This document shows, in pieces, positions 5,705-20,000 of a DNA stretch of 20,000 nucleotides (its first letter is position 1; each line of letters opens with the position of its first letter). The notes under the pieces were generated by a model. It did not search any database. It saw only the letters and a program-made list of their open reading frames with translations, and was not told the DNA's origin. Made by a program: the position numbers and the translations under genes. The stretch is from an uncultured virus (IMG/VR IMGVR_UViG_3300033463_005796) (lineage: Duplodnaviria > Heunggongvirae > Uroviricota > Caudoviricetes): IMG/VR virus record IMGVR_UViG_3300033463_005796; one strand, written 5' to 3'.

Positions 5705-5715
5705 GTGTTTTCTCC

Positions 5716-5919
5716 TTAGATGATCTTGATGCTGGCATGAGCATTGTTCTCATCGATCAGCATCTTCTCTGCATTCTTGAGAGCGCCATTGGCATGCGGG
5801 AACCAGCCGATCGAGAAAGGAATCGGCCTGTCAGTCTGGACGCAGCTGATCAGCGACATGACTGCGTTGTTGGCCTTGATCAGTTCGGCCAAAATCTGTT
5901 CTTTGGTTGCAGGGTTCAT
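5716..5919 (-). CDS. hypothetical protein (MNPATKEQ...)
   Basis: ATG 5919 after CA-rich leader, avoids overlap with 5948-6175. Confidence 0.7.
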   Translation of the reverse strand: MNPATKEQILAELIKANNAVMSLISCVQTDRPIPFSIGWFPHANGALKNAEKMLIDENNAHASIKII

Positions 5920-5947
5920 GGTTGTTTGGTTAGTTTGGGTTAACGCT

Positions 5948-6175
5948 TCATTTCGTGCTCCATTCTCCTTCGACTTTTTCAGGAAGATCGATGACAGTCT
6001 TTCCAATTTTCCAATGGCCGGCAGGAGACCAATCATTGTCTTCAGACGCCTCTTCATCTTCGACATATTCACCAATCACGACTTCTTCTTTGAGAGTCGC
6101 GACGTATTCGTCAAGAAGGTCGGGGTTTTCTTCCGCGAACTTGTTAACCTTTTGGACAAAGTCTTTAAGTGTCAT
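5948..6175 (-). CDS. small acidic hypothetical protein
   Basis: first ORF after P6. Confidence 0.8.
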   Translation of the reverse strand: MTLKDFVQKVNKFAEENPDLLDEYVATLKEEVVIGEYVEDEEASEDNDWSPAGHWKIGKTVIDLPEKVEGEWSTK

Positions 6176-6206
6176 GGTTTTGTGGTTATTTGGGGTTGAC
6201 AGTATT

Positions 6207-6235
6207 ATTATAACAAACTGGAAACTTATTGGCAG
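6207..6235 (-). promoter_or_regulatory. early-type promoter P6
   Basis: CTGCCA-N17-TATAAT. Confidence 0.85.
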
Positions 6236-6256
6236 TCACATCAGAAAATAATTTTT

Positions 6257-6520
6257 CTAATGGATCCGGTTGATGATGCACTTGTCAATGTCGAAGACCT
6301 CTTCAACACGGCTGCCAGTGAACTCTGGCCACTTGGCAGCATCTTCATCAAGTCGCTTTTGGACAATGCTGCGAGCATCATCCTCATTTTCAGCATTGAG
6401 ATAAGTGCGGAAATTGACACGCTTCTTCAACTGCTTGCGCTTTCCATTCTTGTCATAAGTGTATGTTGGCGTAGAATAAGTGACGCACCACCGGCAATGA
6501 AGGTTGGTTTCTTCAGGCAT
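6257..6520 (-). CDS. hypothetical protein (MPEETN...)
   Basis: ATG 6520 overlaps upstream stop by 8 nt. Confidence 0.7.
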   Translation of the reverse strand: MPEETNLHCRWCVTYSTPTYTYDKNGKRKQLKKRVNFRTYLNAENEDDARSIVQKRLDEDAAKWPEFTGSRVEEVFDIDKCIINRIH

Positions 6521-6815
6521 GCTTCTTTCCCTTTCTCTTCTTGGTTGGGAACCTGGTAAGGACTTTGTAGTTAAAGCCTTCGACAAGCCAATTGCCGGCT
6601 TCAGTCAGCTCATCGCAGATGTAGTCGGCCGTCAAGTCAGATGGCTTGTCGATCTCAAGGACAAGATCCATCTCGGTGCCAAGTGAAGCCTTCACTTCAG
6701 CGATCCTGGCTTCAATCTTCTCTTCGTCTTCAATGTCTTCTTCAGGCATTGAATCGATGACGTCCTCATCTTCGACACTCCACCTGATGTTGTAGCAATG
6801 AACTTTAACAGTCAT
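6513..6815 (-). CDS. acidic hypothetical protein
   Basis: AGGAGG SD; D/E-rich. Confidence 0.8.
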   Translation of the reverse strand: MTVKVHCYNIRWSVEDEDVIDSMPEEDIEDEEKIEARIAEVKASLGTEMDLVLEIDKPSDLTADYICDELTEAGNWLVEGFNYKVLTRFPTKKRKGKKHA

Positions 6816-7022
6816 CTAGTTTCCTCCTGGTTCGACGATCCATTTGACATTGACATCGTAAGCCGCCATCGGCCAGACACTGAGCAAGAACTTGCGTGTG
6901 TCACGGACAAAATCTTTGACTGAACGCCTCTTGTCAATTATGACGAACGTTCGAGACCCCATCTCGACAAGACGGCCATCGAAGTTGGCGACGACTTGCC
7001 ATTTGATTGTGAACTTGGTCAT
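6816..7022 (-). CDS. hypothetical protein
   Basis: 68 aa, GAGGA SD, abuts neighbours. Confidence 0.7.
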   Translation of the reverse strand: MTKFTIKWQVVANFDGRLVEMGSRTFVIIDKRRSVKDFVRDTRKFLLSVWPMAAYDVNVKWIVEPGGN

Positions 7023-7025
7023 TGC

Positions 7026-7283
7026 TTAGTCCTCAAAAGTGAGATTGCGGCGGGTGATGACGACGTTGTGGAAGAGCTTGGCAGGGTCGTCGCCGCGGAC
7101 GGCTCGGCTCAAGTGGACTCCAGCCCAGAGAGTCTTCGGCCCAATCTCGATCTTGGAGACCTTCGCTCCCCAGACATTCTCGAACTGGTCACGGATAGCT
7201 TCCTTGATGCCATCAAGGGTCTTAGCGCATCGTGCCGTCCGGAAGGTGTTTCCAAACGCTGTGTAGAAGTTGATCTTGCTCAT
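7026..7283 (-). CDS. hypothetical protein
   Basis: first ORF after P7. Confidence 0.8.
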   Translation of the reverse strand: MSKINFYTAFGNTFRTARCAKTLDGIKEAIRDQFENVWGAKVSKIEIGPKTLWAGVHLSRAVRGDDPAKLFHNVVITRRNLTFED

Positions 7284-7338
7284 TGGCTGTTTCTTTGGTT
7301 GTTGGTTGTTTGAGCTGCTTTATTCAAGCGGCATAATT

Positions 7339-7367
7339 ATTATAACAAATTGGGTCCTAATTGGCAG
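7339..7367 (-). promoter_or_regulatory. early-type promoter P7
   Basis: CTGCCA-N17-TATAAT; overlapped by inverted repeat TGGGTCCT/AGGACCCA. Confidence 0.85.
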
Positions 7368-7409
7368 GACCCATCAGAAAATAATTTTCCCCGCTAGACA
7401 GCCATCATT

Positions 7410-7628
7410 CTACTTAGACTCTTCTTTGTTCTTAGCGATCAGGCCATCGATGTCGGCGGAAGTCTTCCTAAGGAACTTAAGCATCCCATCAAGGAGCTTG
7501 TCCTCTCGCTCAAGCGTTTCAATCTCGCCATCAAGCTTCCCTTGAATCTTGCCGACGCGATATCCGACAAAGCATCCAGCAAGGAAGCAGATTCCGCCCA
7601 TGAAGACTGGGTCATTCAGCAGTTCCAT
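7410..7628 (-). CDS. small membrane-anchored, possibly coiled-coil protein
   Basis: N-terminal hydrophobic helix; AAGGAG SD. Confidence 0.7.
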   Translation of the reverse strand: MELLNDPVFMGGICFLAGCFVGYRVGKIQGKLDGEIETLEREDKLLDGMLKFLRKTSADIDGLIAKNKEESK

Positions 7629-7659
7629 TTCATTTTCTCCTTTTCTTTTTTATTGCTGT

Positions 7660-7851
7660 CTAGCCAGCAAATGGATCGTCAAGAAACGACGAGAGCTCCT
7701 TGCCAGCCTCAGGATGCTCAAGCAGATAGAGCATGATTTCCGGCTGACGAAACGCAAAACCAGTCAAGAACAGCGCTTCCATCGCGATTCCAATGCCATA
7801 GAACCAGATGGCGAAAACCATCAGCACAGAAAGAATTTCCAAGATTTCCAT
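7660..7851 (-). CDS. small membrane protein (MEILEILSVL...)
   Basis: ATG 7851 with AAGGAG SD; hydrophobic N-half. Confidence 0.7.
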   Translation of the reverse strand: MEILEILSVLMVFAIWFYGIGIAMEALFLTGFAFRQPEIMLYLLEHPEAGKELSSFLDDPFAG

Positions 7852-7865
7852 TTGTGTTTCTCCTT

Positions 7866-8030
7866 TTAGTAGATCGGGTCGAACGGACTGGCCATCTTCA
7901 CGGACCTCACCTTCAGGCTGCATGCCGCTGCGGCCAGCTCGGCCTCGTGCCTTGCGTCCATAGAGTTCTTCGCCCAGACAGACGTGACGACGCCGTTGGT
8001 GAACCTGACGGTGTAGCGGAAAGAATTCAT
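7866..8030 (-). CDS. 54-aa hypothetical protein (MNSFRYTVRF...)
   Basis: ATG 8030 with AAAAGGAAAAAC. Confidence 0.65.
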   Translation of the reverse strand: MNSFRYTVRFTNGVVTSVWAKNSMDARHEAELAAAACSLKVRSVKMASPFDPIY

Positions 8031-8047
8031 TTTGTTTTTCCTTTTGT

Positions 8048-8257
8048 TTAGATTTGAATCGCTGAAACGAACTGGATGCTGCGATAGCATCGGCTCATGT
8101 AGAACCGAGCTGCAAGGTTGAAGGCCGTCTCAGAAGGAGACTGGCCATTGAGCGCACCAAGGCAGACACGCTGCCTGCGGCACACGACTTTCGACGGATC
8201 GCCAACTGCCCGTTGGACGAGCATCTTGACGGAGTATGTTGCGACTGGGCTGCTCAT
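8048..8257 (-). CDS. hypothetical protein
   Basis: first ORF after P8, AAGGAA upstream. Confidence 0.7.
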   Translation of the reverse strand: MSSPVATYSVKMLVQRAVGDPSKVVCRRQRVCLGALNGQSPSETAFNLAARFYMSRCYRSIQFVSAIQI

Positions 8258-8302
8258 GTGGGTTTATTTCCTTGGGCTGCTGCTCAATCAAGCAGCATGA
8301 TT

Positions 8303-8331
8303 ATTATAACAATCTGGAAACTATTTGGCAG
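8303..8331 (-). promoter_or_regulatory. early-type promoter P8
   Basis: CTGCCA-N17-TATAAT. Confidence 0.85.
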
Positions 8332-8358
8332 TCACATCAGAAAATAATTTTATCTCGG

Positions 8359-8454
8359 TCAGCCTCGCCAGCCGTAGCATTTCCTTGCCATTCTCATCAG
8401 CCACTGCCATCTGTAGTATTCAGAAGGCCGGCACGTGAAGAAATAGAGCGTCAT
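8359..8454 (-). CDS. 31-aa peptide MTLYFFTCRPSEYYRWQWLMRMARKCYGWRG, not in ORF track
   Basis: hand-translated; AAGGAGAG SD; fills gap. Confidence 0.55.
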   Translation of the reverse strand: MTLYFFTCRPSEYYRWQWLMRMARKCYGWRG

Positions 8455-8469
8455 TTGGTTTCTCTCCTT

Positions 8470-8763
8470 TCAGCTGACGACCGGAAGATTGCGAAGCTCA
8501 CCCCAGAAGTGATGGTACTCGGTATGCTGGAAGAACCAGAACGCCGAGTCAACGTCCTCGAACGTCATGGTCAGCTTCTTCATTCTGCTGTCACCGGCGT
8601 AGAATCCCGAGACCTTGATCTTCCCAGTCTCTTCAAAGAACTTCTCATCGCAGTCCCAGTGGAATTTGCTAGGGATGTAGTTCTTGAAGTCACGGACTCG
8701 GAACTTGACGTAGTCTTCCTCACTGACGGCATGGCCGCAGTAGTCTCTCATCTTCTTAGGCAT
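8470..8763 (-). CDS. hypothetical protein
   Basis: 97-aa ORF in operon. Confidence 0.75.
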   Translation of the reverse strand: MPKKMRDYCGHAVSEEDYVKFRVRDFKNYIPSKFHWDCDEKFFEETGKIKVSGFYAGDSRMKKLTMTFEDVDSAFWFFQHTEYHHFWGELRNLPVVS

Positions 8764-8785
8764 CTAGTTTCTCTCTTTGATTGTC

Positions 8786-9034
8786 CTACGCGAAGACTCC
8801 CAAGATCCGCTGGTTCGCCTTGAACGCCATCGCACAGCGGTCCTCAGGATACGAAAGAACAACGAACTTGCCAGCTGGATATTGGTTGTGCAGAACGCGG
8901 CTGATCTTGTCCTTCGCCTTGTCCAAAGTGTCGTGCTTCGAACAGCAGCACCAGCCGGCATCTACGCAGTTGCCCCCGTCAGGGACGCCCTTGTAGACCT
9001 CAGTCCAAACCATCTGGTAGTCGTTGGGGATCAT
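8786..9034 (-). CDS. hypothetical protein
   Basis: 82 aa, GAGGA SD. Confidence 0.7.
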   Translation of the reverse strand: MIPNDYQMVWTEVYKGVPDGGNCVDAGWCCCSKHDTLDKAKDKISRVLHNQYPAGKFVVLSYPEDRCAMAFKANQRILGVFA

Positions 9035-9044
9035 CGCATTGTCC

Positions 9045-9272
9045 TCACTGCTTTACGAGCTCGTAGCCCGTAGTCATGCTCCAATAGGAGCGGCCGTTGT
9101 TCAGGCAATTCAGAAGCCCGCGGATCGACTTGATCTGCCAACGCTCTTTGCCGTTGCATTCAATGGTATACCCAAACACGTTGTCAACAAGCTCACGGAG
9201 CGTTCCCGTGTAGTCGTGAGAATGGCCGTTGTGCCGGGTGCGGACCGTGTAGACTTTGCTGGAATTAGCCAT
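9045..9272 (-). CDS. hypothetical protein
   Basis: 75 aa, AAAAGGAAAA upstream. Confidence 0.75.
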   Translation of the reverse strand: MANSSKVYTVRTRHNGHSHDYTGTLRELVDNVFGYTIECNGKERWQIKSIRGLLNCLNNGRSYWSMTTGYELVKQ

Positions 9273-9313
9273 TTTGTTTTTTCCTTTTAGTTAGGGTTGC
9301 TGCAGTTGATGGT

Positions 9314-9580
9314 TCAGCTGTGCCAAGCTTCATTGCGGATGCGCACGATCTCCTCAGCCTTGGCTTTGCCGGCGTCACCGGAGAATGGAAGGCCGACCGA
9401 CTTCGTCTTGGTGCCGTACCAAGAGCTCTTCTCTCCGTTAGGACCCACAGGGCGTTCCATCACGTAGTACCACGGTTCTTTGAGGATCTGAGGATCGTTG
9501 CGGTCGCCGGACGGGAGCTGTGTGACTTTCTTGACGAAGTACCGCCGCTTGCTCTTAGGAATGGAATCGAGTTTGGACAT
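9314..9580 (-). CDS. basic hypothetical protein
   Basis: first ORF after P9. Confidence 0.8.
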   Translation of the reverse strand: MSKLDSIPKSKRRYFVKKVTQLPSGDRNDPQILKEPWYYVMERPVGPNGEKSSWYGTKTKSVGLPFSGDAGKAKAEEIVRIRNEAWHS

Positions 9581-9629
9581 GTGGGTTGTTCTCTTTTTGG
9601 TTTGAGCTGCTCAATCAAGCAGCAAGATT

Positions 9630-9658
9630 ATTATAACAAAAGACAAAACAATTGGCAG
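9630..9658 (-). promoter_or_regulatory. early-type promoter P9
   Basis: CTGCCA-N17-TATAAT. Confidence 0.85.
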
Positions 9659-9678
9659 TCCCATCAGAAATTATTTTA

Positions 9679-10005
9679 TCAGTCGGAGACGACAACTTGC
9701 CAGTCATCCTCATAGATGATCGGACCAAGGCTTACATCATCGGTGACAACCTCTAGGATCCGCACTCCATCAAGAAACCGCTTGAAGAACGGCAAAGTAT
9801 GCTTCTTGAAAGCAGCACACCCAGATTCCGTAAACCAAGACATACGGCTTCCATAGAAAGGAAGAGCCGACTTCGGAAGCCATGAAACGGCCGGACTTGA
9901 AAGGATCTCATTCTTCCAGACATCTGGACTTACAGACTTCTTAAGGAAATCGTAGATCCCTACACCATTGACAGTGAACCTATGCAAGATCATTTCCAGC
10001 TCCAT
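9679..10005 (-). CDS. hypothetical protein (SWFTESG...IYEDDWQV)
   Basis: 108 aa, TAAGGAGA SD. Confidence 0.8.
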   Translation of the reverse strand: MELEMILHRFTVNGVGIYDFLKKSVSPDVWKNEILSSPAVSWLPKSALPFYGSRMSWFTESGCAAFKKHTLPFFKRFLDGVRILEVVTDDVSLGPIIYEDDWQVVVSD

Positions 10006-10017
10006 GGACTTTTCTCC

Positions 10018-10185
10018 TTATCGGTTCTTGTTGTTCGCCCAGATTAGAAATGCGCCGAAAAAGAAATATGCGGCAATTGCTGACAAAGTCGCATTGACGA
10101 AACGGCCTTCAGCATAATGGAGTATTGCTGCATAAAGAGAAAAAATCGCTGCAAGCCCGTTGCAAACTACTATTGCAGTTTTCAT
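10018..10185 (-). CDS. 55-aa two-TM membrane peptide (MKTAIVVCNGLAAIFSLYAAIL...), not in ORF track
   Basis: hand-translated; two hydrophobic stretches, basic C-tail; stop overlaps next gene's SD. Confidence 0.65.
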   Translation of the reverse strand: MKTAIVVCNGLAAIFSLYAAILHYAEGRFVNATLSAIAAYFFFGAFLIWANNKNR

Positions 10186-10217
10186 GGTCTTTTATCTTTC
10201 ATTTATTAGAAACTTTC

Positions 10218-10289
10218 GGTGGAATCTTTGGCGGAATCTTTGGCGGAACTGCCGGCGGAATCTTTGGCGAAACTCCCGGCGGAATCGCA
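10218..10289 (+). repeat. six 12-bp tandem repeats, consensus GGCGGAATCTTT
   Basis: units at 10218, 10230, 10242, 10254, 10266, 10278. Confidence 0.9.
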
Positions 10290-10338
10290 AATTTTTGCCC
10301 TAAACCTCCGCGCGACCCACGCGCGCCCGTGCGGCATG

Positions 10339-10399
10339 GATTCCGCCGAAAAACGAAAAGCCCGGCGATTCCGCTTAAAAAAGCGATTCCGCTTAAAAA
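10339..10399 (-). repeat. inverted copies of the same motif: GATTCCGCC and 2x GCGATTCCGCTTAAAAA
   Basis: 10339-10347, 10365-10381, 10383-10399. Confidence 0.85.
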
Positions 10400-10444
10400 T
10401 TTGCTCTGCTAATTTTTAGCCGCTATCGTAGTTTCTCCGCACTG

Positions 10445-11032
10445 CTATTTCCTTTCGATTTTTCCCATGAGGGTCTTTGTGATGTATGCGTCAAGTTCGG
10501 CTTCGCTGACCGGTCTGTAGTTCCAGACGTCTGTGCCGACGTTGATGTTGAGAACGGGCGGCGTGAACTTGAACTTCCAGGCGTCATGCACATGGCCGCA
10601 CAGATGGATATGAAACCAGAGATGTCCGTCTGTGTAGGTGGGAGTTTCAACCTGCTCCCAGCGAGAATCGTAAGATGGGAAGTGGCCGACAGAAACGATG
10701 TATCTTCCTATTTTTCGGGTAAGGGTCCGGCCGATGACGCGCACATGGTTGTTCGCATCGTGGTTCCCTTCGAGGAAAATGATCGGGGCATGGATCTGGG
10801 AGACGTAGAAGTCGGGCTTGTTCCGGCCGGTTTCGATCCCGCGGTTCTTGCCGTAGTTGAGGAAGTCACCGACATGGATGAGGATGTCATCTGGCTTGAC
10901 GCGCTCGTTGATTCCGCGGATGAGGGCAGCGTCATGCTTCTCGACGGACTTGAACGGACGATGCGCCCAGTCGATGATGCCGGGGGACTGGGAGCTTTGG
11001 AGGTGCAAGTCACTTGTGAAGAATGTTTTCAT
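10445..11032 (-). CDS. calcineurin-like metallophosphoesterase
   Basis: SDLH, HVGD, GNHD, HFP, GHVH, NVGTD motifs. Confidence 0.92.
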   Translation of the reverse strand: MKTFFTSDLHLQSSQSPGIIDWAHRPFKSVEKHDAALIRGINERVKPDDILIHVGDFLNYGKNRGIETGRNKPDFYVSQIHAPIIFLEGNHDANNHVRVIGRTLTRKIGRYIVSVGHFPSYDSRWEQVETPTYTDGHLWFHIHLCGHVHDAWKFKFTPPVLNINVGTDVWNYRPVSEAELDAYITKTLMGKIERK

Positions 11033-11059
11033 CGAGGAACTTTGTTTTTCTCTGGGACT

Positions 11060-11088
11060 ATTATAACAAAGTGACAGGGGTTTAGCAG
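11060..11088 (-). promoter_or_regulatory. early-type promoter P10
   Basis: CTGCTA-N17-TATAAT. Confidence 0.85.
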
Positions 11089-11121
11089 AGTTGGATAAAA
11101 TATTTTTTAATAAAACGGATT

Positions 11122-11150
11122 CTGCTAAAACAAAATTATTTTGTTATAAT
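11122..11150 (+). promoter_or_regulatory. early-type promoter P11, divergent from P10
   Basis: CTGCTA-N17-TATAAT on + strand. Confidence 0.8.
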
Positions 11151-11163
11151 AGCCGGCATTAAA

Positions 11164-11238
11164 GGAAATCCCCCTCCCGATGAGGCCCACACGGCGGACC
11201 CAACACGCCACTCACCGGGAGGGGGATTCCGGTTTTTT
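11164..11238. ncRNA. candidate structured small RNA or bidirectional terminator
   Basis: AATCCCCCTCCCG/CGGGAGGGGGATT stem, TGAG/CTCA and GGCG/CGCC inner stems; P11 upstream, T-run downstream. Confidence 0.45.
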
Positions 11239-11252
11239 ACCCAGGAAACCGG

Positions 11253-11543
11253 TCAAAGATAGATTTTGTCGGAAGCATAAGTCCGTTTACGATAAGTCTG
11301 GTTGTCGTCCTTCGAGACATATTCGAACTCGAGGTACTTTGTCCCAAACTCGTTTTGGACGACTTCGTTCTTCAGGAGCTTGTGGCCCCAGTAGTCGGCG
11401 AAGTTCTTGTTCTTGCGGATGAGGTCTTCCCACGGAAGGTACGGATCCCAGTCGTTGCCGCTCGAGAAGACCCAGCGGCCGTTCTTCTTGACATGGACGT
11501 AAGATGTGACAAGGCACTTCGTGCTAGTGGAGTTGCTGCTCAT
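11253..11543 (-). CDS. hypothetical protein (MSSNSTSTK...)
   Basis: ATG 11543 with AAAGGAAA, downstream of P12. Confidence 0.75.
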   Translation of the reverse strand: MSSNSTSTKCLVTSYVHVKKNGRWVFSSGNDWDPYLPWEDLIRKNKNFADYWGHKLLKNEVVQNEFGTKYLEFEYVSKDDNQTYRKRTYASDKIYL

Positions 11544-11591
11544 TGTCGGTTTCCTTTCTGTTTGCTTAAGGTGTTGAAAAAGCAATCGTCT

Positions 11592-11620
11592 ATTATAACA
11601 CAAAAGAAACTTTTTAGCAG
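11592..11620 (-). promoter_or_regulatory. early-type promoter P12
   Basis: CTGCTA-N17-TATAAT. Confidence 0.85.
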
Positions 11621-11640
11621 TGCTTCATTTTAAAAAAAAA

Positions 11641-11904
11641 TCAATCGACCAGCGTGAACACGTAGTCGAAGAACTGGGAGAACCCGATGGACTTCTTCGC
11701 CGGAAAGAGACTTGCATTGTGGGCAAGGTCTTTGAAGAGTTCGGATTCGGGGTTTCCGTTCCAGATCCAGTCGTAAGCCTCGCGGGCAACTTCTTCGGAT
11801 TCGAAGACGATTCCGATGTAGTTCTTCGAAAACTCGACGGACTTCACGCGGATGAAATCCAGGCCGATGTTCGGGTCGGAGACTTTGTCGATTCGGAGCT
11901 TCAT
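11641..11904 (-). CDS. hypothetical protein
   Basis: 87 aa, downstream of P13. Confidence 0.75.
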   Translation of the reverse strand: MKLRIDKVSDPNIGLDFIRVKSVEFSKNYIGIVFESEEVAREAYDWIWNGNPESELFKDLAHNASLFPAKKSIGFSQFFDYVFTLVD

Positions 11905-11936
11905 GCGTGCGTGGGGCTTTGTGAGGTGACAGGACT

Positions 11937-11965
11937 ATTATAACAAACTGGGAACTAATTGGCAG
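11937..11965 (-). promoter_or_regulatory. early-type promoter P13
   Basis: CTGCCA-N17-TATAAT. Confidence 0.85.
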
Positions 11966-11999
11966 ATCCGGCTGAAATTATTTTTTCAGCCGGAAATGG

Positions 12000-12033
12000 G
12001 TTCCCCGGCCGGGCTTGCACCCGGCCGGGGAAC
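12000..12033 (-). terminator. GC-rich hairpin after paralog A
   Basis: GTTCCCCGGCCGGG-TGCAAG-CCCGGCCGGGGAAC; GCAA loop; weak U tail. Confidence 0.65.
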
Positions 12034-12042
12034 TTTGTTCGG

Positions 12043-12489
12043 TTACGCGAGGGCCGCTTCGGCGTCGGCGACCGGGTCGGACTCGGTGGGCGCCTCGGGG
12101 GCGGGCTCGTCGGCGGTCTTCTTCTCCGCGTCGGCCTTCTGCTTCTCGGCGAACTTCTCGGCGGCGGCCTTGACGGCGTCGGCGTCGGACTCGTCGATGA
12201 ACTTGCCGTAGGCGTCGCGGGAGAAGACGTGCTCGCCGATGATGAGCACCGTGCTCATCACGCCGGTCGCCTTCGACGGACGGCGCTCGAACTTGACGTC
12301 GGCGTCCGGCTTGAAGAGCTCCGGGTTCTTCTTCGCTTTCGCGGTGATCGTGGGACGGATCCACGAGAGGCCCTTCGTGATGACCGCGAGGCGGGTCTCC
12401 GGGGTGCCGCCGCGCTGGAGCTTCCAGCCGAGAGGCCCGATGTCGGAGTCGGTGACGGTTTCGCCGGCGATGAACGCGCTGAGTTTCAT
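12043..12489 (-). CDS. GC-rich hypothetical protein, paralog A (148 aa)
   Basis: ATG 12489 with AAAAGGAAAA; strong GC3 bias; similar to 13084-13527. Confidence 0.88.
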   Translation of the reverse strand: MKLSAFIAGETVTDSDIGPLGWKLQRGGTPETRLAVITKGLSWIRPTITAKAKKNPELFKPDADVKFERRPSKATGVMSTVLIIGEHVFSRDAYGKFIDESDADAVKAAAEKFAEKQKADAEKKTADEPAPEAPTESDPVADAEAALA

Positions 12490-12559
12490 GTGTGTTTTCC
12501 TTTTGTTGGGTTGTTGGGTTTTGTGTTTGTTTGGTGCCACTCATTCAAGCGGCATAATT

Positions 12560-12984
12560 ATTATAACAAATGCAAAGTCTTTTAGCAGAACTCATCAAAA
12601 ACTTTTTTAACTTGATGGATATCTTCCATTGAGAGGAACTATGGATTTCGGGAGGGACATTTGACTTCTGACTTTCCGCAGGACTATTATAACAAAAGGA
12701 TTTTTGTTTAGCAGAGGAACTTAGGACTGAATACTTCCCAATGGTCCTAAGACTGTTATAACAAAAAAGGGGCTTTTTAGCAGACGAGAAAAATTTTATT
12801 TTTCTCTGCTAAAAAGCTTTCACTTTGTTATAATAGCCCGACCCGGGAACTTTGGCCTTCTAAGAGGCCAAAGGCTATTATAACGCAAAAGCGACTTTTT
12901 AGCAGAGCTAAAAAGTTCCTTAAGGCACTTTATCCATCTAAAGTGCCTTAAGACTATTATAACAAAAAACTTTCCTTTTAGCAG
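12560..12984. promoter_or_regulatory. promoter hub A: six motif copies P14-P19
   Basis: CTGCTA-N17-TATAAT at 12560-12588(-), 12686-12714(-), 12755-12783(-, TATAAC), 12806-12834(+), 12877-12905(-), 12956-12984(-). Confidence 0.85.
12919..12952. repeat. perfect 14-bp inverted repeat
   Basis: CTTAAGGCACTTTA-tccatc-TAAAGTGCCTTAAG. Confidence 0.9.
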
Positions 12985-13017
12985 AGGAACTATTAAAAAA
13001 TAAAATGACTAGAGACT

Positions 13018-13053
13018 AAAAAAATCCCCGGGCCACTTTGCAGTGGCCCGGGG
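13018..13053 (-). terminator. intrinsic terminator after paralog B
   Basis: CCCCGGGCCACT-GCAA-AGTGGCCCGGGG then ATTTTTTT. Confidence 0.85.
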
Positions 13054-13083
13054 CGCGGGGAGCTTTTGGCGGGGCGGGGAGCT

Positions 13084-13527
13084 TTACTCCGCGGCGGGGA
13101 CTTCGGCCTCGGCCTCGGCCGCCGGCGCCGGGGTCTCCGGCTTGGAGGCGGCCTTCTTGGCGGCGACCTTCTCAGCGGTCACCGCGGCCTTGGACTTGGC
13201 GGCCTCGAGCTTCTCGGTGTCGGTCTCCTCGGTCACCAGGCCGTAGGCGTCGCGGCTGATGGTGATCGAGCCGATGGTGACGCAGGTGGACATGATGCCG
13301 GAGGCGGCAGACGGGCGGCGCTCGAAGAGCACCTCGGCGTCGAGCGGGAACTTGGTGTGGTCCTTGTCGCGCTTGACGGCGGCCTTGATCGTGGGGCGGA
13401 TCCACGAGAGGCCCTTGGTCGCGGCGGCGCAGACGTCCGTGAAGCCGCGCTGGATCTTCCACCCGCCGGGGCCGATGGAGGCGGGGTCCGTGACGGGGAC
13501 GGAATCGAGGAACTGCTGGAGGGTCAT
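13084..13527 (-). CDS. GC-rich hypothetical protein, paralog B (147 aa)
   Basis: ATG 13527; shares IGPxGWKxQRG, TKGLSWIRPTI, FERRPS, SRDAYG with paralog A. Confidence 0.88.
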   Translation of the reverse strand: MTLQQFLDSVPVTDPASIGPGGWKIQRGFTDVCAAATKGLSWIRPTIKAAVKRDKDHTKFPLDAEVLFERRPSAASGIMSTCVTIGSITISRDAYGLVTEETDTEKLEAAKSKAAVTAEKVAAKKAASKPETPAPAAEAEAEVPAAE

Positions 13528-13617
13528 GGTTGTTGTTCTTTCTTGGTTGTGTGCTCTCATGTGTGTGGTTGTGTGATTTATTGAGTGAGAGCACTTAGCT
13601 CAATCAATCACGGAATT

Positions 13618-13996
13618 ATTTTATCAAAAGTGCTTGGATTTAGCAGCCCGAATGAATTTTATTTTTATTTTTTTATTTGGATTGGGGAGGGGTGGGGGAG
13701 GAGAGGTTCATTTGGGTTGACGTAATTATTATAACAAAAAGCATAGTGTTTAGCAGAGCCCCCATAAAAAATAAAAAATAATTTTTTCTCTGCTAATCTG
13801 GGACAGTTTTGTTATAATAATCCTGTTAGAAAAAATGAAAATCACTCTGCTAAAGGAAACAAATTTTGTTATAATCCCCCCGAGGTCCGCCGGCAGGTTC
13901 GTCCCTGGGTCCCAGGCTATTATAACAAAAAGGTAAAAATTTAGCAGTCAAAAAATAATTTTTTTCTCTGCTAAAGTGCCCCGGGGGTGTTATAAT
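13618..13996. promoter_or_regulatory. promoter hub B: six motif copies P20-P25
   Basis: CTGCTA-N17-TATAAT at 13618-13646(-, TAAAAT), 13728-13756(-), 13790-13818(+), 13847-13875(+), 13919-13947(-), 13968-13996(+). Confidence 0.85.
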
Positions 13997-14000
13997 ATAC

Positions 14001-14052
14001 CTAGCCCCGGGGCTAGCCCCGGAGGTACGCCGGGGGATACCCCCGGGGGTAC
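14001..14052. repeat. 12-bp-period palindromic repeats (xTAsCCCCGGGG-like)
   Basis: CTAGCCCCGGGG, CTAGCCCCGGAG, GTACGCCGGGGG, ATACCCCCGGGG. Confidence 0.8.
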
Positions 14053-14083
14053 TCTGCTAAACCCGTATTTATACGGCCTAAGA

Positions 14084-14165
14084 ATCCGCCGATCGGTTCC
14101 GCCGAAGCGTGCTCATCGATGTCAAGATTCCGCCGAAGCGTGCTCCCCGGTGGTTCCGCCGATCG
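14084..14165 (-). repeat. four WTCCGCCGA repeats (reverse complement of the 10218 array motif)
   Basis: 14084, 14097, 14128, 14154; TTCCGCCGAAGCGTGCTC occurs twice. Confidence 0.85.
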
Positions 14166-14264
14166 AAATTTTTTCGAAAAGTCCATTTCGGTCCGTTCGC
14201 CCGAAGGCGATCGCGCAAGCGAGGGAGCTCCCCGAGGTGCGAAAACGCCCCAAGGGGCGAAAGA

Positions 14265-14381
14265 AACTTTATGTTAGGCGCCCCTAATGAGCCTAGGCGG
14301 GCGGGAAAAACGCTATATATAGAGCCTTTTTAAAATGCGAAAAAGTGACCCCTGGTCGGGAAAGAACTTTTTGTTAGGCGC
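14265..14381 (+). repeat. 17-bp direct repeat AACTTTWTGTTAGGCGC, 100 bp apart
   Basis: 14265-14281 and 14365-14381. Confidence 0.8.
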
Positions 14382-14425
14382 TTTTTCCTGGCCTATGAAA
14401 GCTGCTTTTTGACTTCGTCTAGATA

Positions 14426-14441
14426 TGCATGAAAGTAAATA
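14426..14441 (+). promoter_or_regulatory. candidate late promoter TGCAWGAAAGTAAATA
   Basis: 15/16 identical to 16822-16837; both precede + strand genes. Confidence 0.5.
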
Positions 14442-14479
14442 CTGACATAAATTTATAAACAAAAGGAATCATTGATAAT

Positions 14480-16060
14480 ATGCCAAACAATCCTGACAGC
14501 CCTGAGATGAAGAAATACTATGAAGAATTTCGAAAGTTCTATGAAAAGCATAAGAACCATGTGAAATGCCCAGAATGCAAAAATGAATTTGATGCGATCC
14601 CTATGGGATGCATGGATGAAACATGGCAAAAAGACGAATACGTATGTCCGGCATGCGGAGCTGTAGCTGAAGGCCCTGAAGTGGAAGAGACTGCTCCAAA
14701 GCATCCAAAAGAAAAGACTAATGAATCTAAGAATGTTGAATCAACGAAGAAATATGTCATAAGGAACTACAAAGGGAACCTTTTAGAGTCTCTAGAAAAC
14801 TTTGGAAAAAAGTTCCCAGACATGAAAGTGAAGTCTGTCAAAGTAAAAGACGGGACTGTCATGTTTGAAGCTCTTTCAAGGTCATATGACGGCATGGGGA
14901 CACAGTACAAGTTCCGCCGGCGTCCATCTGACAAGCAGGCTAAGTACTATATCACATGGTCTGATGCTGGCGAAGACCGCGTCATTGGCTTCGTCTTAGG
15001 GATCCCTGAAGAGAACAGAAAGCACTTCGTCTTGTCTCAGTACGAGGAGAACCGTTGGTCTTACACATCATCTCCAAAGAGAGTCGCTGCTGTCGCCGAG
15101 ATGGTCACAAAGCAGTTTCCAAACTTCTGGTTCGCCATCAGGAAAGAAGAATATACCGAGGACATCCAGCGCACTGCTAACACGGGAGCTCCTCCAAAGA
15201 ACCATGCAAGGAACTTCAACCGTCTAGCTGACTATGACCCAAGGACAAAGACTTGGTTCGGCTTAGACGCTGTCAAAGAGCTCCCTGAGCCTGAGTCCAA
15301 CCCTGAGACTTTCCAAGACAAGATGAACAAAGCAGCTGCCCCAAAGGACAAATCTGACGCTGCTGACAAGCAGTTCTTGCAGAAGTGGAAGGGGGAGAAC
15401 CCAATGAAGGTCCAGTTCGAGATCGAGAAGCGCCAGAGGGAAGTCAACCGCAACAGAGACACGATCGAAGCTACAAAGAAGCCTGAGCTGAAAGCAAGCT
15501 TAGAGAAGCAAAATGAGCATTTGACGCATGAGATTGAGCTTTTGGGCTCATTGGTCGGTGGGGTGAAAGAGTCAATGGCTGTTGGCTTCAAGAAAGCTTT
15601 CGAAGGATGGAAGAAAGAATGGGAAGCCCGCAAGAGTGGCAAAACAAATGAATCCCGCAGCATCGATCCAAAAGCCTATGATTTCTGGGCAAACAACTTT
15701 GAAGATGAAGTCAAAAGACTATTCAATGATGATCCAGAAAAAGCTAATGATGTCTTGGCAGCGACAGATGAACTTGCAAGCAATGACCATGCAAGAGCAA
15801 AGCTGTTAGACAAGTTCCTTAAGGATGACCATGATGATTTCATCATGTTGTTCGCAGACCTCTTCGACATGTCCCCTAATGCTGACCTCTCTAAAGTGTC
15901 TCTTGACGACCTTGATGAAGAAGGCGTGAAGGATGCTTGGAATAACCTGGTCAAAGGAAATCCTCGCGCAGCTATCATGTATTACATCGACAACCTTGCT
16001 TATGGCCAAAGAACAGTTCTAGACGATGTTCTTGAAGCATGCGGGAAATATAATAAATAA
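14480..16060 (+). CDS. multidomain protein: Zn-ribbon, NYKGNL module, coiled coil, acidic C-domain; possible virion internal protein
   Basis: CPEC/CPAC; KKYVIRNYKGNLLESL; repeated xxES linkers; AAAAGGA SD. Confidence 0.8.
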   Translation: MPNNPDSPEMKKYYEEFRKFYEKHKNHVKCPECKNEFDAIPMGCMDETWQKDEYVCPACGAVAEGPEVEETAPKHPKEKTNESKNVESTKKYVIRNYKGNLLESLENFGKKFPDMKVKSVKVKDGTVMFEALSRSYDGMGTQYKFRRRPSDKQAKYYITWSDAGEDRVIGFVLGIPEENRKHFVLSQYEENRWSYTSSPKRVAAVAEMVTKQFPNFWFAIRKEEYTEDIQRTANTGAPPKNHARNFNRLADYDPRTKTWFGLDAVKELPEPESNPETFQDKMNKAAAPKDKSDAADKQFLQKWKGENPMKVQFEIEKRQREVNRNRDTIEATKKPELKASLEKQNEHLTHEIELLGSLVGGVKESMAVGFKKAFEGWKKEWEARKSGKTNESRSIDPKAYDFWANNFEDEVKRLFNDDPEKANDVLAATDELASNDHARAKLLDKFLKDDHDDFIMLFADLFDMSPNADLSKVSLDDLDEEGVKDAWNNLVKGNPRAAIMYYIDNLAYGQRTVLDDVLEACGKYNK

Positions 16061-16116
16061 AGTTTCCCGCGCGTACGCGCGCCCGCGAGAGAAAAGAAAA
16101 ATTCTTTCCAGGAATG

Positions 16117-16144
16117 AAAAAAGCTCCCTTTTAGGGAGCTTTTT
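16117..16144. terminator. bidirectional intrinsic terminator
   Basis: AAAAAAGCTCCCT-TTT-AGGGAGCTTTTT between convergent genes. Confidence 0.85.
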
Positions 16145-16200
16145 AGGCACATTGCCTGTCCTCGATCTTCCTATGCAGGATCTAGTTCAATGCCCTATTT

Positions 16201-16785
16201 TCAAAATAGTTTGTTTGTTAATGGCTTCCATTTCCCAGGGTTGTTCAAGATGTCGACTTCTGTCTCAAAGCCAGCTTCATCTTGTTCTTTTTCATAATGG
16301 AAGACGTCGAACCCATAGACGCTCTTTGAAAGGTCTGAATATTTTTCTATGATCTTCTTTTCGATAGCGTTCCGCTGCTTGATGAGGTCAAGAAGCTCAT
16401 TCCTGCGCTTCAGCTCGTTCTTGTCGATCATCTTTTCGACAGTCTTTGTGTCAAGTGGCTTTGTCGAGTAGTCTTTGTCGATAGGGAGCTTTGGCCAGAT
16501 CTCACTGTCACGAAAATATGTGTCTTTGCTGCGATAGAAGACCATGTCAATGAGCTTCTGCTTTCCGCCTTCTGACAAAGCATAGACATATGGGCCATTT
16601 TTCTTAGTTTTCTCTCTGACAAGGTAATGCTTGTTGTATAGGTTCAAAAATGCATGTGAGAATGCTGACTTGTAGTCTTTGAATGCGTGTGGGAAAAGGC
16701 TTGAAAGATGCTCTACAGCTAAAGATGTAGTGTTGATTCCATCTTTTCCAAGGTAATATAGGACTGCTTTTTCTATGTTGTTCAT
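16201..16785 (-). CDS. probable winged helix-turn-helix DNA-binding protein
   Basis: start MNNIEKAVLYYL; LxNLYNKHYLVRE...YVYALSEGGKQ resembles a PadR/MarR-type wing (pattern recognition only). Confidence 0.65.
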   Translation of the reverse strand: MNNIEKAVLYYLGKDGINTTSLAVEHLSSLFPHAFKDYKSAFSHAFLNLYNKHYLVREKTKKNGPYVYALSEGGKQKLIDMVFYRSKDTYFRDSEIWPKLPIDKDYSTKPLDTKTVEKMIDKNELKRRNELLDLIKQRNAIEKKIIEKYSDLSKSVYGFDVFHYEKEQDEAGFETEVDILNNPGKWKPLTNKLF

Positions 16786-16821
16786 TGCTTGAAATAGTAT
16801 TGTTTTTAATAATATACGCTT

Positions 16822-16837
16822 TGCAAGAAAGTAAATA
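16822..16837 (+). promoter_or_regulatory. candidate late promoter TGCAAGAAAGTAAATA
   Basis: second copy of the 14426 motif, 18 nt before ATG 16856. Confidence 0.5.
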
Positions 16838-16855
16838 AAACAAAAGATTTTTATA

Positions 16856-17260
16856 ATGAAAAAGTACACTATCAAAAACTACAAAGGGAACCTTGTCGAA
16901 TCTTTGAAGAAATTCTCAGAAAAATACAAAGGCATGAAGATCGTCGAAGCCACAGAAAAAAACAATGAATTAAAAATTGTTTGTGAAGTTAAAGATATTG
17001 AAGATTATGACGATTATGATGACGCTGTTGATACAGATAGCAATTATGGAGATTTTTGGGTAGAACTATATAAAGATCATTATGGTGATCCAATTAGAAA
17101 AGAATTTGATAATTTCAAAGATGCATTTGAATTTGCTGATTCTAAAACAAAAAGCAAACAGTATGAAGCAATTTTTATTGCTATTAACGTTGCAGGCGGA
17201 CCATCAATCGCATCATCATATGATAATATTCATGGTTGTTGGGTCGGAAGAACAAAATAA
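16856..17260 (+). CDS. hypothetical protein with N-terminal NYKGNL module
   Basis: MKKYTIKNYKGNLVESL. Confidence 0.85.
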   Translation: MKKYTIKNYKGNLVESLKKFSEKYKGMKIVEATEKNNELKIVCEVKDIEDYDDYDDAVDTDSNYGDFWVELYKDHYGDPIRKEFDNFKDAFEFADSKTKSKQYEAIFIAINVAGGPSIASSYDNIHGCWVGRTK

Positions 17261-17295
17261 AGCAATTTTAACAATTTAACCTTCTAAAAAGAAAA

Positions 17296-17805
17296 ATGAA
17301 AAAATACACAGTAAAGAACTATAAAGGCAACCTTGTCGAATCTCTTGAGAAATTCAAAAAGTCTCATGAGAAGATGCGCATTGTTGAAGCCGTTGAAGGT
17401 GAAGATTTTTTGACTATTGTCGCAGATGACTATCTTTCAACTCCATTGTTTGACTTTGGGTCAAAGCTGCTCATGTTTGGAGTAGAAGTCCACTTGTGGC
17501 ATCTGAACTGCGACAATGGTGATACTCATGCTGCATTGAAAGAACTCTATGAAGCATGTGATGACATTGGAGACAGACTTCTAGAAGCCTTGATAGGGAT
17601 CTATGGTGGAACTGTCACAATTCATGCAGCTTCAACAGAGACAGAAGTTGGAAGATATGACAGAGCTTGCATCGACAAGATATCTGCTATGAAAGAAGAA
17701 GCCGCTGGATTAGCTCCAGGAAGCCCAGCTGGAATAAGCAGCATCCTCGATGACTTCTGTGAGACATGCAATTCAGTCATCTACAAGCTTAAGCAGTTGA
17801 ATTAG
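17296..17805 (+). CDS. NYKGNL module fused to Dps/ferritin-like four-helix domain
   Basis: HLWHLN...HAALKELYE...DRLLE resembles Dps ferroxidase ligands; C-terminal YKL helix. Confidence 0.75.
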   Translation: MKKYTVKNYKGNLVESLEKFKKSHEKMRIVEAVEGEDFLTIVADDYLSTPLFDFGSKLLMFGVEVHLWHLNCDNGDTHAALKELYEACDDIGDRLLEALIGIYGGTVTIHAASTETEVGRYDRACIDKISAMKEEAAGLAPGSPAGISSILDDFCETCNSVIYKLKQLN

Positions 17806-17811
17806 TCAAAA

Positions 17812-18741
17812 ATGGTCATTGTCCCTAGAGATGTGTTAGAAAAACTTCAAAAGGGAGTTTCTGAGGAAGAAGAAAACTCAAAGCTCCCTTTTGATTTTGA
17901 TGATTTTATAAAAAGTGTTGACCATGAGTCAAAAGTCAGAGACTATCTGTCAAGAAGGAACATTGAATATGTTGGCACAGGGACAAGCCGGACAGCATTT
18001 TTGATTCCGAAAGGATCATGCGTTGATGCTAGAGACAGATCTGTATGCTTCAAGATCGCAAAGAACCTTGTTGGAGTAAAGCAGAACCAGACAGAGCATC
18101 AGATCATAAAGAAGTATGGAGAGAACAGCCCATGCTTTGTCAAGATATTCAAATATGATGACAGGCGCAACTTATGCCTAGAAAGTGAGATAGGAAGTCG
18201 CCTTTCTCAGTTCGACATGAAAGAATATTTCTCTGACTGGAACAATTTCATGAAGAAGACTGATGCTGAGAGAAGCTTTTCAGACAAGTTCAAGAGCTTT
18301 TTCTCAATGCATGGAAGAAAATACAAAAGCGTAAAGAAGATCTTGACTATAGAGAACTTTGAAGATGACTTCTTTGACATATTGTTTACAGTCAAAGACT
18401 TTAGGAAGCTGGGGTCCCACGCTTCTGAAGACAACAATCTGAAAAAATACAATGAAGAAGCTGGATTATATATAAGGACAATCAAGAAATGCGCTAAAAA
18501 CTACCCTAAGTATTCTGGCGTAGGTGGGTTGATTGAACTTTTGTTTGAAAGGGGCGCTGAAGCTGAACTGAGGATTGGTGAATTCACCGATGAAGACAAC
18601 TTCGCAATGGTCTATAGAGATGATCCCGATCCAGTCTTGCTTCCAATCGACTATGGCATAACACAGAAAGTCTTTGAAGACTTCTATGGAAAGAATGCTA
18701 GAAAAGAATATTTTGAAGAACCGCAACAACAAAGTAATTAA
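17812..18741 (+). CDS. protein-kinase-like fold protein
   Basis: VGTGTSRTAF Gly loop, CFKIAK, NQTE helix-C Glu, GEFTDEDN, IDYG. Confidence 0.7.
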   Translation: MVIVPRDVLEKLQKGVSEEEENSKLPFDFDDFIKSVDHESKVRDYLSRRNIEYVGTGTSRTAFLIPKGSCVDARDRSVCFKIAKNLVGVKQNQTEHQIIKKYGENSPCFVKIFKYDDRRNLCLESEIGSRLSQFDMKEYFSDWNNFMKKTDAERSFSDKFKSFFSMHGRKYKSVKKILTIENFEDDFFDILFTVKDFRKLGSHASEDNNLKKYNEEAGLYIRTIKKCAKNYPKYSGVGGLIELLFERGAEAELRIGEFTDEDNFAMVYRDDPDPVLLPIDYGITQKVFEDFYGKNARKEYFEEPQQQSN

Positions 18742-18757
18742 TTTTAATAAAACTCCT

Positions 18758-20000
18758 ATGAAGACACAAGCAGAAATTTTACACGAGAACATAGCAGAAT
18801 TAAGTGAAAAAGTAGACGGTTTCGCAGATGCAATCAACACTTCACTTGAGACTGTTGTCGACAAGACTGAATCTATTGTCGTTGACTTGAACCAGACTTA
18901 TGCACGTCTGAATGAAATCGACGACACTATCGCCAACATAAACACTGATGTCAAAGTTGATGTCGACCTTGAAGAACTTAAAGAATATATCCCAGAAAAG
19001 ACAAATGAACTTGTTTCATCATCACTTGAAGCAATTTCTGAAAAATTAGATAGACTCATTGATCTAAATAGCAAAGAATATCTAAACACTGTTGACAGTT
19101 TAAATGATTATTTAGATGAACAACTAGAAGAATCTGGTTGTTATGATGAATATAATGAAACAATTAATACATTAAATGAACAAGAATTATCCTTAGGTGA
19201 TTATATTTCTAATATAGGAAATTATTTAACTCCAGTTGATGTTTCAGATGTTTTATCTTCTAATATAAGTGTTGATGTCAGTAGTGATTTAGAAGATGAA
19301 AATACATTTTCATTGCATTTGAAAAGAGATAATAATGAAGTTAAGAAAAGAGCTGAAAAAACTATAAAAAAAATAATAGATAATATGATAACCGGCTTTC
19401 AGAATGGAACTGGGAAAACATCTTTAACTGATTATTTTAATGGTCTTGATGGAAAATCATCAACAGAGGTTGTAAATAGCATAATAGGAGCATTTAAAGC
19501 TGGATTAAACAGCGCAAAAAGCATAACAGACAGTATAAATACAGCTGCCAAAAAAATATCAACAGCATTGAATGGTTATAAACAGAATATCAATAATTTC
19601 TTTACAGCATATAAAAATACTTTAGAAGATTCTAGTAAAACTGATGCTCCGTGCTGCGTTGATCTTAAAAAATTAGCAGAAACATCTTTAAAAATACAGT
19701 TAATACTAGAATATAATCCAATATTTTGTGGTGCATCAACTAACAAAGGAAATAAATGGCAATTAACTGAAGAATACTGTAACAATACTGCAAATGAATA
19801 TAAGAAACAGTTAAACAATTTCTTAAAAGAACATTCAGGCAATTCAAATGATAAAATTACATTAAATAAAACTGATCGAGATGATCTTTTAGCAAAAATA
19901 AATCTAAAATATGAAGCTATTTTAAGCGCTATTATAAAAGATACAGATTCAACATTAATACCATTTGCTAAACCAAAAAATTGGCAAAAAATAACAACTG
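18758..20000 (+). CDS. long AT-rich ORF, 3'-truncated, acidic coiled-coil-like N-terminus (MKTQAEILHENIAELSEK...)
   Basis: hand-translated, open from ATG 18758 to window end; absent from ORF track. Confidence 0.8.
   Translation, partial: MKTQAEILHENIAELSEKVDGFADAINTSLETVVDKTESIVVDLNQTYARLNEIDDTIANINTDVKVDVDLEELKEYIPEKTNELVSSSLEAISEKLDRLIDLNSKEYLNTVDSLNDYLDEQLEESGCYDEYNETINTLNEQELSLGDYISNIGNYLTPVDVSDVLSSNISVDVSSDLEDENTFSLHLKRDNNEVKKRAEKTIKKIIDNMITGFQNGTGKTSLTDYFNGLDGKSSTEVVNSIIGAFKAGLNSAKSITDSINTAAKKISTALNGYKQNINNFFTAYKNTLEDSSKTDAPCCVDLKKLAETSLKIQLILEYNPIFCGASTNKGNKWQLTEEYCNNTANEYKKQLNNFLKEHSGNSNDKITLNKTDRDDLLAKINLKYEAILSAIIKDTDSTLIPFAKPKNWQKITT

Follow-up and report, generated by a model that had tools for sequence, protein, structure and literature searches.

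What purpose is served by placing two small, related genes each behind six copies of one promoter is the question raised by positions 12000 to 13996 of a 20,000-nt stretch of DNA from an uncultured virus of the Caudoviricetes (IMG/VR record IMGVR_UViG_3300033463_005796), which we refer to as the window. Two paralogous open reading frames (ORFs), A and B, are set here among twelve copies of a 29-nt promoter motif, which together we call the hub. An original prediction made from the sequence had described the locus as a duplicated module encoding the first and most highly expressed pair of host-takeover effectors. Our analysis leads us to regard A and B as probably the products of insulated multi-promoter early cassettes, which would supply two abundant orphan proteins from the divergence centre of an early-type region. 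The window represents 6% of one contig of 337,844 bp, a length that points to an element of jumbo-phage size, and the source is a very large, uncultured phage of ruminant (cattle or rumen) guts.

The motif, CTGC[C/T]AA-N14-GTTATAAT, was searched as CTGC[C/T]AA-N14-GTTATAA[T/C] and matched 24 times across the 20 kb, where 200 shuffles gave 0.01 matches on average. Together with a degenerate copy at 13618-13646 this gives 25 copies, 12 in the hub and 13 elsewhere in the window, all with a 17-bp spacer and with an AT-rich stretch upstream. The -10 element is TATAAT in 23 of the 25, the exceptions being TATAAC (12755) and TAAAAT (13618), and TG stands at -15/-14 in all but the copy at 12877, which has CG; the perfect TG-extended -10 reads TGTTATAAT. 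The -35 block, weak though conserved, is CTGCCA in 10 copies (4/6 match to TTGACA) and CTGCTA in 15 (3/6), and a generic sigma-70 scan scores the CTGCCA class at 10/12 with TG. The motif is most likely read by a sigma-70-family holoenzyme as a promoter of the extended -10 class. Every minus-strand copy outside the modules (12/12) has an ATG-started ORF within about 70 nt downstream, which makes the motif the ordinary promoter of this phage and not a feature specific to the modules; within them, the copies at 12560 and 13618 precede A and B, respectively. Two classes of promoter can be told apart, the first (CTGCTAAA) with 15 copies between 11060 and 13996, and the second (CTGCCAAT...TTTCCAG.TTGTTATAAT) with 10 copies, about one per kb, at 822-9658 and at 11937-11965 (minus), one for each cassette of the left arm.

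Between 12560 and 13996 (1.4 kb) the twelve hub copies reach a density of 8.4 per kb, compared with 1.0 per kb in the left arm (9 in 8.8 kb) and none in 14001-20000, and they cover 32-37% of the non-coding DNA. Each paralog is preceded by about 0.5 kb of non-coding DNA with six copies. In module A, these are the gene-proximal A1 (12560-12588, minus) and A2 (12686-12714, minus), A3 (12755-12783, minus, with the -10 TATAAC), A4 (12806-12834, plus), A5 (12877-12905, minus, with a hairpin downstream) and the distal A6 (12956-12984, minus), so that five copies aim at gene A and one, at 12806, aims away. In module B, the degenerate B1 (TGATAAAAT; 13618-13646, minus) is followed by B2 (13728-13756, minus), B3 (13790-13818, plus), B4 (13847-13875, plus), B5 (13919-13947, minus) and B6 (13968-13996, plus); three of them (13618, 13728 and 13919) aim at gene B and three (13790, 13847 and 13968) point rightward. 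The rightward copies face a 480-nt GC-rich leader, headed by B6, and then a 526-aa gene at 14480, and are best read as promoters of the rightward arm. In all, 8 of the 12 hub copies aim at A or B and 4 aim away. Neighbouring copies also form pairs. Four pairs, 11060/11122, 12755/12806, 13728/13790 and 13919/13968, stand back to back, each with a common AT-rich palindrome, and one pair per module stands face to face (12806/12877 and 13847/13919), the -10 elements being separated by 42 and 43 bp and the predicted starts by 30 and 31 nt, respectively. The six promoter copies foreseen for each unit are thus present, one of those of B being degenerate. The two units had also been said to share the same layout, a description we had to abandon, as the orientations run -,-,-,+,-,- in A and -,-,+,+,-,+ in B and the non-coding DNA of the two is alike in the promoter blocks alone.

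The expected pair of ~148-aa paralogs carrying motifs such as IGPxGWKxQRG was recovered as A (12043-12489, minus; 148 aa) and B (13084-13527, minus; 147 aa), which have 59 of 117 residues in common (50%, E 4e-33 by BLASTP). Both combine a basic core (isoelectric point 9.6 in A and 8.7 in B) with an acidic tail rich in A, E, K and P (4.2 and 4.9). Their coding DNA is 69% identical over 312 nt and non-coding similarity is confined to the promoter blocks, indicating that the gene duplication is old and that neither hub is a plain copy of the other. The two genes differ from their surroundings in composition: the A/B region has 64-69% GC in 400-nt windows and its flanks 43-52%, and the GC content by codon position is 0.62/0.47/0.95 in A and 0.61/0.53/0.97 in B, a pattern characteristic of genuine coding DNA. 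At the third position (GC3) these values of 0.95-0.97 compare with 0.18-0.77 in the other ORFs of at least 60 aa, and the base counts there are C 88, G 53, A 4 and T 3 in A, as against C 510, T 486, G 384 and A 205 in 11 neighbouring minus-strand genes. The ratio of nonsynonymous to synonymous differences (pN/pS) relative to the orthologues in a related locus, L003 (see below), is 0.25 for A and 0.24 for B, and on this measure both genes are under purifying selection. On the 337,844-bp contig, the locus of A is annotated in a different frame, as a 188-aa ORF (window 11981-12544, minus); we take the 148-aa frame as the real one because of the paralogy, the GC3 pattern and the pN/pS ratio.

Both genes are flanked by predicted RNA structures, in line with the leader hairpin and the GC hairpin with a GCAA loop that had been proposed for each unit. 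The 5′ leader hairpin of A lies at 12553-12536 (minus; -10.4 kcal/mol, z -3.5) and that of B at 13611-13573 (minus; -11.9 kcal/mol, z -2.8). Hairpins of the A type (GCYGCT-loop-AGYRGC) are also found behind the promoters at 7339, 8303 and 9630, which makes this a recurrent leader element of the phage; its four members (7314-7332, 8279-8296, 9606-9623 and 12536-12553, all minus) are located directly at predicted transcript starts. The A leader of L003 is the variant found at window position 7332, which suggests exchange between promoter-leader units. Some of the inner hub promoters have a downstream hairpin, the clearest being the 11-15-bp stem at 12953-12918 behind A6 (z -2.9), and others have none. 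At the 3′ end of gene B, a hairpin of 12 pairs, 10 of them G-C, with a GCAA loop and a U7 tract (ATTTTTTT; 13053-13026, minus) has the features of an intrinsic terminator and is the strongest terminator-like site of the window. The corresponding stem of gene A (12033-12000, minus) is GC-rich, with 15 pairs and the same loop. No U-tract follows it, the sequence there being CCAUUUCC, and the terminator scan did not list it; it may act as a 3′ stabilizer or pause site. A second hairpin behind gene A, a palindrome with an AT loop (11967-11994, minus), adjoins the promoter at 11965-11937, and the two together fold at -55 kcal/mol (z -9.1).

A further proposed constituent of the unit, a mini-ORF between the first two promoters, does not stand. 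The candidates, one of 17 codons in the 97-bp spacer of A (12660-12607, minus; C-rich, with CCCTCCC) and one of 12 codons in the 81-bp spacer of B (13711-13673, minus; with the C-rich tract CCTCTCCTCCCCCACCCCTCCCC), are unrelated to each other in sequence, and neither has a Shine-Dalgarno sequence. The frame of the A candidate is broken in two relatives, by a 2-nt gap in L003 and by deletions of 1, 2 and 1 nt (4 nt in all) in contig X3, and we reject both candidates as coding. What the two spacers have in common is their length and a C-rich tract containing CCTCC. The complement of the B tract at 13676-13700 (plus), GGGGAGGGGTGGGGGAGGAGAGG, could form a G-quadruplex on the template strand of leftward transcription.

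Related loci were absent from the collections viral_contigs and genome_contigs. In metagenome_contigs four were returned, of which L001 is identical to window positions 3603-19729, L002 and L003 are about 92% identical, and the fourth, L004, was discarded as a 14-residue chance match. Contigs from four runs of four studies cover the region at about 95% identity, and contig X3, which spans 11000-14083, carries 136 substitutions. L003 has all 12 hub promoters in unchanged order, and its hubs are 97% identical to those of the window, with 89-97% in aligned blocks elsewhere. Homologues had been expected to keep their promoter hubs, and the only relatives found do keep them, all of them belonging to one phage lineage. 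A run search of the region matched 24 runs from 15 studies, all of ruminant or other animal gut, with half or more of the sampled words present in only 2 of the 24. The promoter pattern itself gave 0 matches in viral_contigs and, in genome_contigs, 10 loci with one unclustered copy each, which we read as chance or ordinary host promoters; no phage promoter work was among the literature matches listed for TTGTTATAAT.

Sequence, profile and fold searches bear out the earlier remark that A and B belong to no recognized family. The best E-values were 0.11 in Pfam, 0.19 in PHROGs and 0.12 in NCBIfam, ESM Atlas gave no usable match, and tblastn of A against 50,697 phage records returned nothing, as did a search of these records with the 526-aa neighbour, which has 2 homologues overall and none in viral_contigs. 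Homologues of A fall into only three near-identical clusters (84-100%) among 5.8 billion clusters, and a full HMMER search with B over 1.84 billion representatives retrieved two proteins at E ≤0.001, B itself and A; this pass, run with no length limit, contained no fused forms of A or B. Two matches were rejected. HamA/DUF1837 (PADLOC; E 0.003, 15 bits) covers 44 residues of the helical tail of A alone and was judged spurious, and a Curtobacterium phage gene matched by blastn of 11500-14500 against the phage records (100 nt, 75%) reflects the composition of a low-complexity tail.

AlphaFold2 models of A and B were built from a shallow six-row alignment which contained both paralogs, so that the two are not independent, and reached a mean predicted local distance difference test (pLDDT) score of 74.5 for A and 69.2 for B. 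They have a predicted topology in common, in which short helices at the N terminus are followed by two further helices, a sheet of four strands, a long C-terminal helix and, last, a disordered end. The fold search that had been proposed as a check was done with Foldseek and gave no match to either model at E ≤0.001 in PDB or BFVD; HPF/YfiA and dsRNA-binding domains recurred weakly, all at E >0.4, and were not trusted. Searched at E up to 10 against every chain sequence in the PDB, a profile hidden Markov model of the A/B family yielded 3 unrelated matches (best E 0.094). One comparison was retained as a lead alone, namely with the DNA-binding anti-CRISPR protein AcrIIA11 (PDB 9utm). This protein is reported to come from a Lachnospiraceae phage and to be widespread in gut Firmicutes (PMC6739867), and to bind DNA weakly and trap Cas9 at off-target sites (PMC12022753). 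A and B would resemble it in size, in gut-phage origin and, as modelled, in a basic surface compatible with DNA binding. The model comparison scored under the level that the tool treats as meaningful, 9utm was absent among the Foldseek matches listed for the A and B models, and it was not reached by the family profile in the PDB search up to E 10.

The setting of the hub was surveyed across the window. Exact look-ups placed B, a phosphoesterase, a 309-aa protein and the 526-aa protein on the 337,844-bp contig. The neighbouring genes are small and mostly without known function, two having PHROG matches, the phosphoesterase (phrog_547, E 2.7e-28) and an ATPase or kinase (phrog_2071, E 1e-22); many such small genes stand behind host-type promoters, as in phage immediate-early or host-takeover regions. 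Gene orientation switches at about 14000, and the cumulative GC skew, lowest near 10 kb, climbs through the hub. The composition splits sharply, with 42-55% GC in the left arm and 26-50% in the right, falling to 26% at the window end. Internal genes have AGGAG-type ribosome-binding sites; the leader of the first gene behind each promoter is CA-rich and offers AAGGAA at best. No transfer RNA was found in the scan and nothing in Rfam exceeded its threshold, five weak matches being judged chance.

Several side observations concern the promoters and leaders of the two arms. Second-class promoters have a common upstream block, AAAATAATTTCT[A/G]..GGGA, and a common start region, ACTGTCA[A/C]CCC, and the leaders behind them are CA-rich, with Shine-Dalgarno sequence scarce or absent. 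A uniform hairpin upstream of the left-arm promoters was considered and dropped, since only 4 of 9 fold better than shuffles, and the block is read as an AT-rich upstream element with conserved sequence. A 48-codon ORF (3973-4152, minus) has its ATG 4 nt past the -10 of the promoter at 4124-4152, so that either a leaderless transcript is possible or the ORF is not real. About 65 nt downstream of the plus-strand promoter at 11122-11150 stands a terminator-like hairpin with T5 (11214-11233). Between them, the two could yield a small RNA some 85 nt long from 11122-11240 (plus), between two minus-strand genes and without an Rfam match. The right-arm leader at 14000-14480 is GC-rich, ORF-poor and repeat-dense. 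Its first 50 nt fold at -34 kcal/mol, and its repeats comprise three palindromes of the TAGCCCCGGGGCTA type, a 25-nt direct repeat present twice and a 40-nt unit (a hairpin and GAAAGAACTTTTTGTTAGGCGC) also present twice, 100 nt apart.

In the reading we favour, the region would be a control centre from which transcription diverges leftward and rightward. The leftward arm would begin with B and then A, followed by one-promoter cassettes of small genes, and each paralog would receive the summed output of its tandem promoters, five for A and three for B, while the three rightward copies would feed the right arm. The unit repeated for each paralog would then comprise tandem promoters, a 5′ stem-loop, a CA-rich leader poor in Shine-Dalgarno sequence, the ORF and a GC hairpin of great stability. 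A row of tandem promoters before a gene is consistent with high expression, and we infer from the sequence that promoter activity is early and strong and that both proteins are abundant. The predicted rank of the pair is retained in part: counted from the point of divergence, B and then A open the leftward arm, but because the window is 20 kb of a far longer contig, "first" or "most highly expressed" cannot be claimed genome-wide. As to function, our guess, a tentative one, is that A and B work in stoichiometric fashion against some abundant target, either by binding nucleic acid or by inhibiting a defence; the basic core and the acidic tail suggest one or the other role.

Clusters of early-type host promoters are already known, and this one stands out by its density, its odd arrangement and the two orphan proteins with a GC3 of 0.95. 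Coliphage T7 carries tandem early promoters A1-A2-A3, with the leftward A0/D, ahead of gene 0.3 (ocr), the product of which is small, abundant and anti-restriction. There, and among the early promoters of T5, several strong promoters of host type crowd into a few hundred bp before the first early gene, as appears to be the case here, and in T7 too one promoter is opposite to the rest. The present hub differs from that of T7 in having 12 copies instead of 3-4, with both orientations interleaved and two face-to-face pairs, and in serving two monocistronic, terminator-insulated cassettes instead of one long early operon; A and B are unrelated to Ocr. Bacillus phage SPO1 has a host-takeover module in its terminal redundancy, and T4 has early regions of small genes; both likewise consist of short cassettes in which a strong promoter serves one to three small genes without known function, and both use extended -10 promoters with AT-rich upstream elements. 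Their promoter sequence is different, and in place of strong ribosome-binding sites the leaders here are CA-rich and Shine-Dalgarno-poor. To our knowledge, nothing in SPO1 or T4 approaches the density of this hub. Promoters that converge, with transcript overlaps of some tens of nucleotides comparable to the 30-31 nt predicted here, are found in pR/pL of coliphage 186 and pIN/pOUT of IS10, whereas the pairs in this hub are embedded in a larger tandem array. By analogy with the early-region logic of T7, SPO1 and T4, the locus would be of early type, at unusual density.

Several points weigh against this account. It is not obvious what the face-to-face pairs and the rightward copy at 12806 contribute to the expression of A or B. 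The -35 block of the hub class matches TTGACA at only 3/6 positions and is strictly conserved all the same, so that a phage factor, not the bare host enzyme, may be its reader. A C at -7 occurs in the copy at 12755, both in the window and in L003, where one more hub copy has it too, so that single copies may be weak or in decay. The relatives all come from one lineage and are at least 84% identical, for which reason their conservation carries little weight. Nor does the account explain genes with a GC3 of 0.95 in a phage whose GC content is about 45%; the timing, strength and start sites of the promoters are all deduced from sequence, and only 20 kb of the 337,844-bp contig was examined.

Among the other explanations, one makes the promoters themselves the switch. 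The CTGCTAAA and CTGCCAAT...TTTCCAG classes would differ in the time at which they are read, one of the two through a phage sigma factor or activator that recognizes the conserved non-consensus -35 block, and the face-to-face and back-to-back pairs would set the balance of the arms by transcriptional interference or antisense RNA. The existence of two sharply distinct -35/spacer variants with different map distributions, an invariant -35 block beside freely varying spacers, and a face-to-face geometry common to both modules (42 and 43 bp between -10 elements) are as such a switch would have them, and the TGCT at about -31 may resemble the MotA box of T4, though its spacing is off by about 3 bp. 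We nevertheless hold this to be doubtful, given that a sigma factor or activator gene was not identified in the 20 kb, that an extended -10 needs no -35 contact and hence no such factor, and that the two classes could stem from the copying of two ancestral promoters. A proposal of similar standing, which we would not favour but would keep in mind, takes A, B and their GC hairpins to have been acquired recently from an organism or phage of high GC and set under local promoters, the density of which would compensate for poor fit to the host and would be no sign of a special role. It would explain the GC3 of 0.95-0.97 amid ORFs at 0.18-0.77 and the third-position skew of A relative to its 11 neighbours, and the codon choice, in our judgement from sequence, resembles that of high-GC Gram-positives. 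Zero relatives were retrieved outside the phage lineage among 1.84 billion representatives or 5.8 billion clusters, however, and both copies hold a GC3 above 0.9 although only 50% identity is left between them, which argues for selection or bias maintained after duplication and not for a fresh import.

Other readings attach to the DNA of the hub. That it mainly binds and holds host polymerase, as an RNA-polymerase sink to which expression of A and B is secondary, seems to us quite improbable, even though twelve near-consensus extended -10 promoters occupy 32-37% of the non-coding DNA within 1.4 kb, several have no gene of their own, and the hubs are better conserved than their surroundings (97% vs 89-97%). 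Two polymerases starting 30-31 nt apart and face to face could not clear each other, which would also suit a sink. A dozen sites per genome are few beside the thousands of polymerases in a cell, unless phage DNA is highly amplified, and the 8 of 12 copies that aim at A or B fit plain additive expression; of the four that aim away, three may simply drive the rightward arm. The tandem strong early promoters of T7 and T5 are, moreover, explained by expression alone. Least of all do we expect the cluster to double as a transcription-activated replication origin or other DNA-level site. The primary origin of T7 consists of two promoters and an AT-rich stretch, and the hub offers AT-rich palindromes between back-to-back promoters, the adjoining repeat-dense GC-rich stretch at 14000-14480, the orientation switch near 14000 and a GC skew that rises from its minimum near 10 kb. 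That minimum lies 2-4 kb from the hub, the repeat is the same motif that precedes every left-arm cassette and not an origin-specific iteron, and no initiator or replication gene was seen nearby. We also think it unlikely, if slightly less so than a sink alone, that A and B represent a new fold and family of very abundant early effectors (for example DNA-binding defence inhibitors, distantly AcrIIA11-like), with GC3 as a maintained adaptation for expression or mRNA survival and the hub, whose face-to-face promoters would exclude each other sterically, as a dedicated device that loads and holds host RNA polymerase on incoming DNA.

Insulated early cassettes for two orphan proteins thus stay our preferred description of the locus. 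If the promoters are as strong as they look, the hub would be among the densest natural promoter arrays described for a phage, and its compact promoter, leader and terminator parts would be available for use in gut bacteria. The GC3 of 0.95 in both diverged copies, within a genome of about 45% GC, may inform on codon and mRNA selection in the early genes of huge phages. A and B are orphans in 15 billion sequences, yet they occupy the most heavily promoted cassettes of the region, and such places tend to yield phage counter-defence or takeover proteins with new mechanisms.

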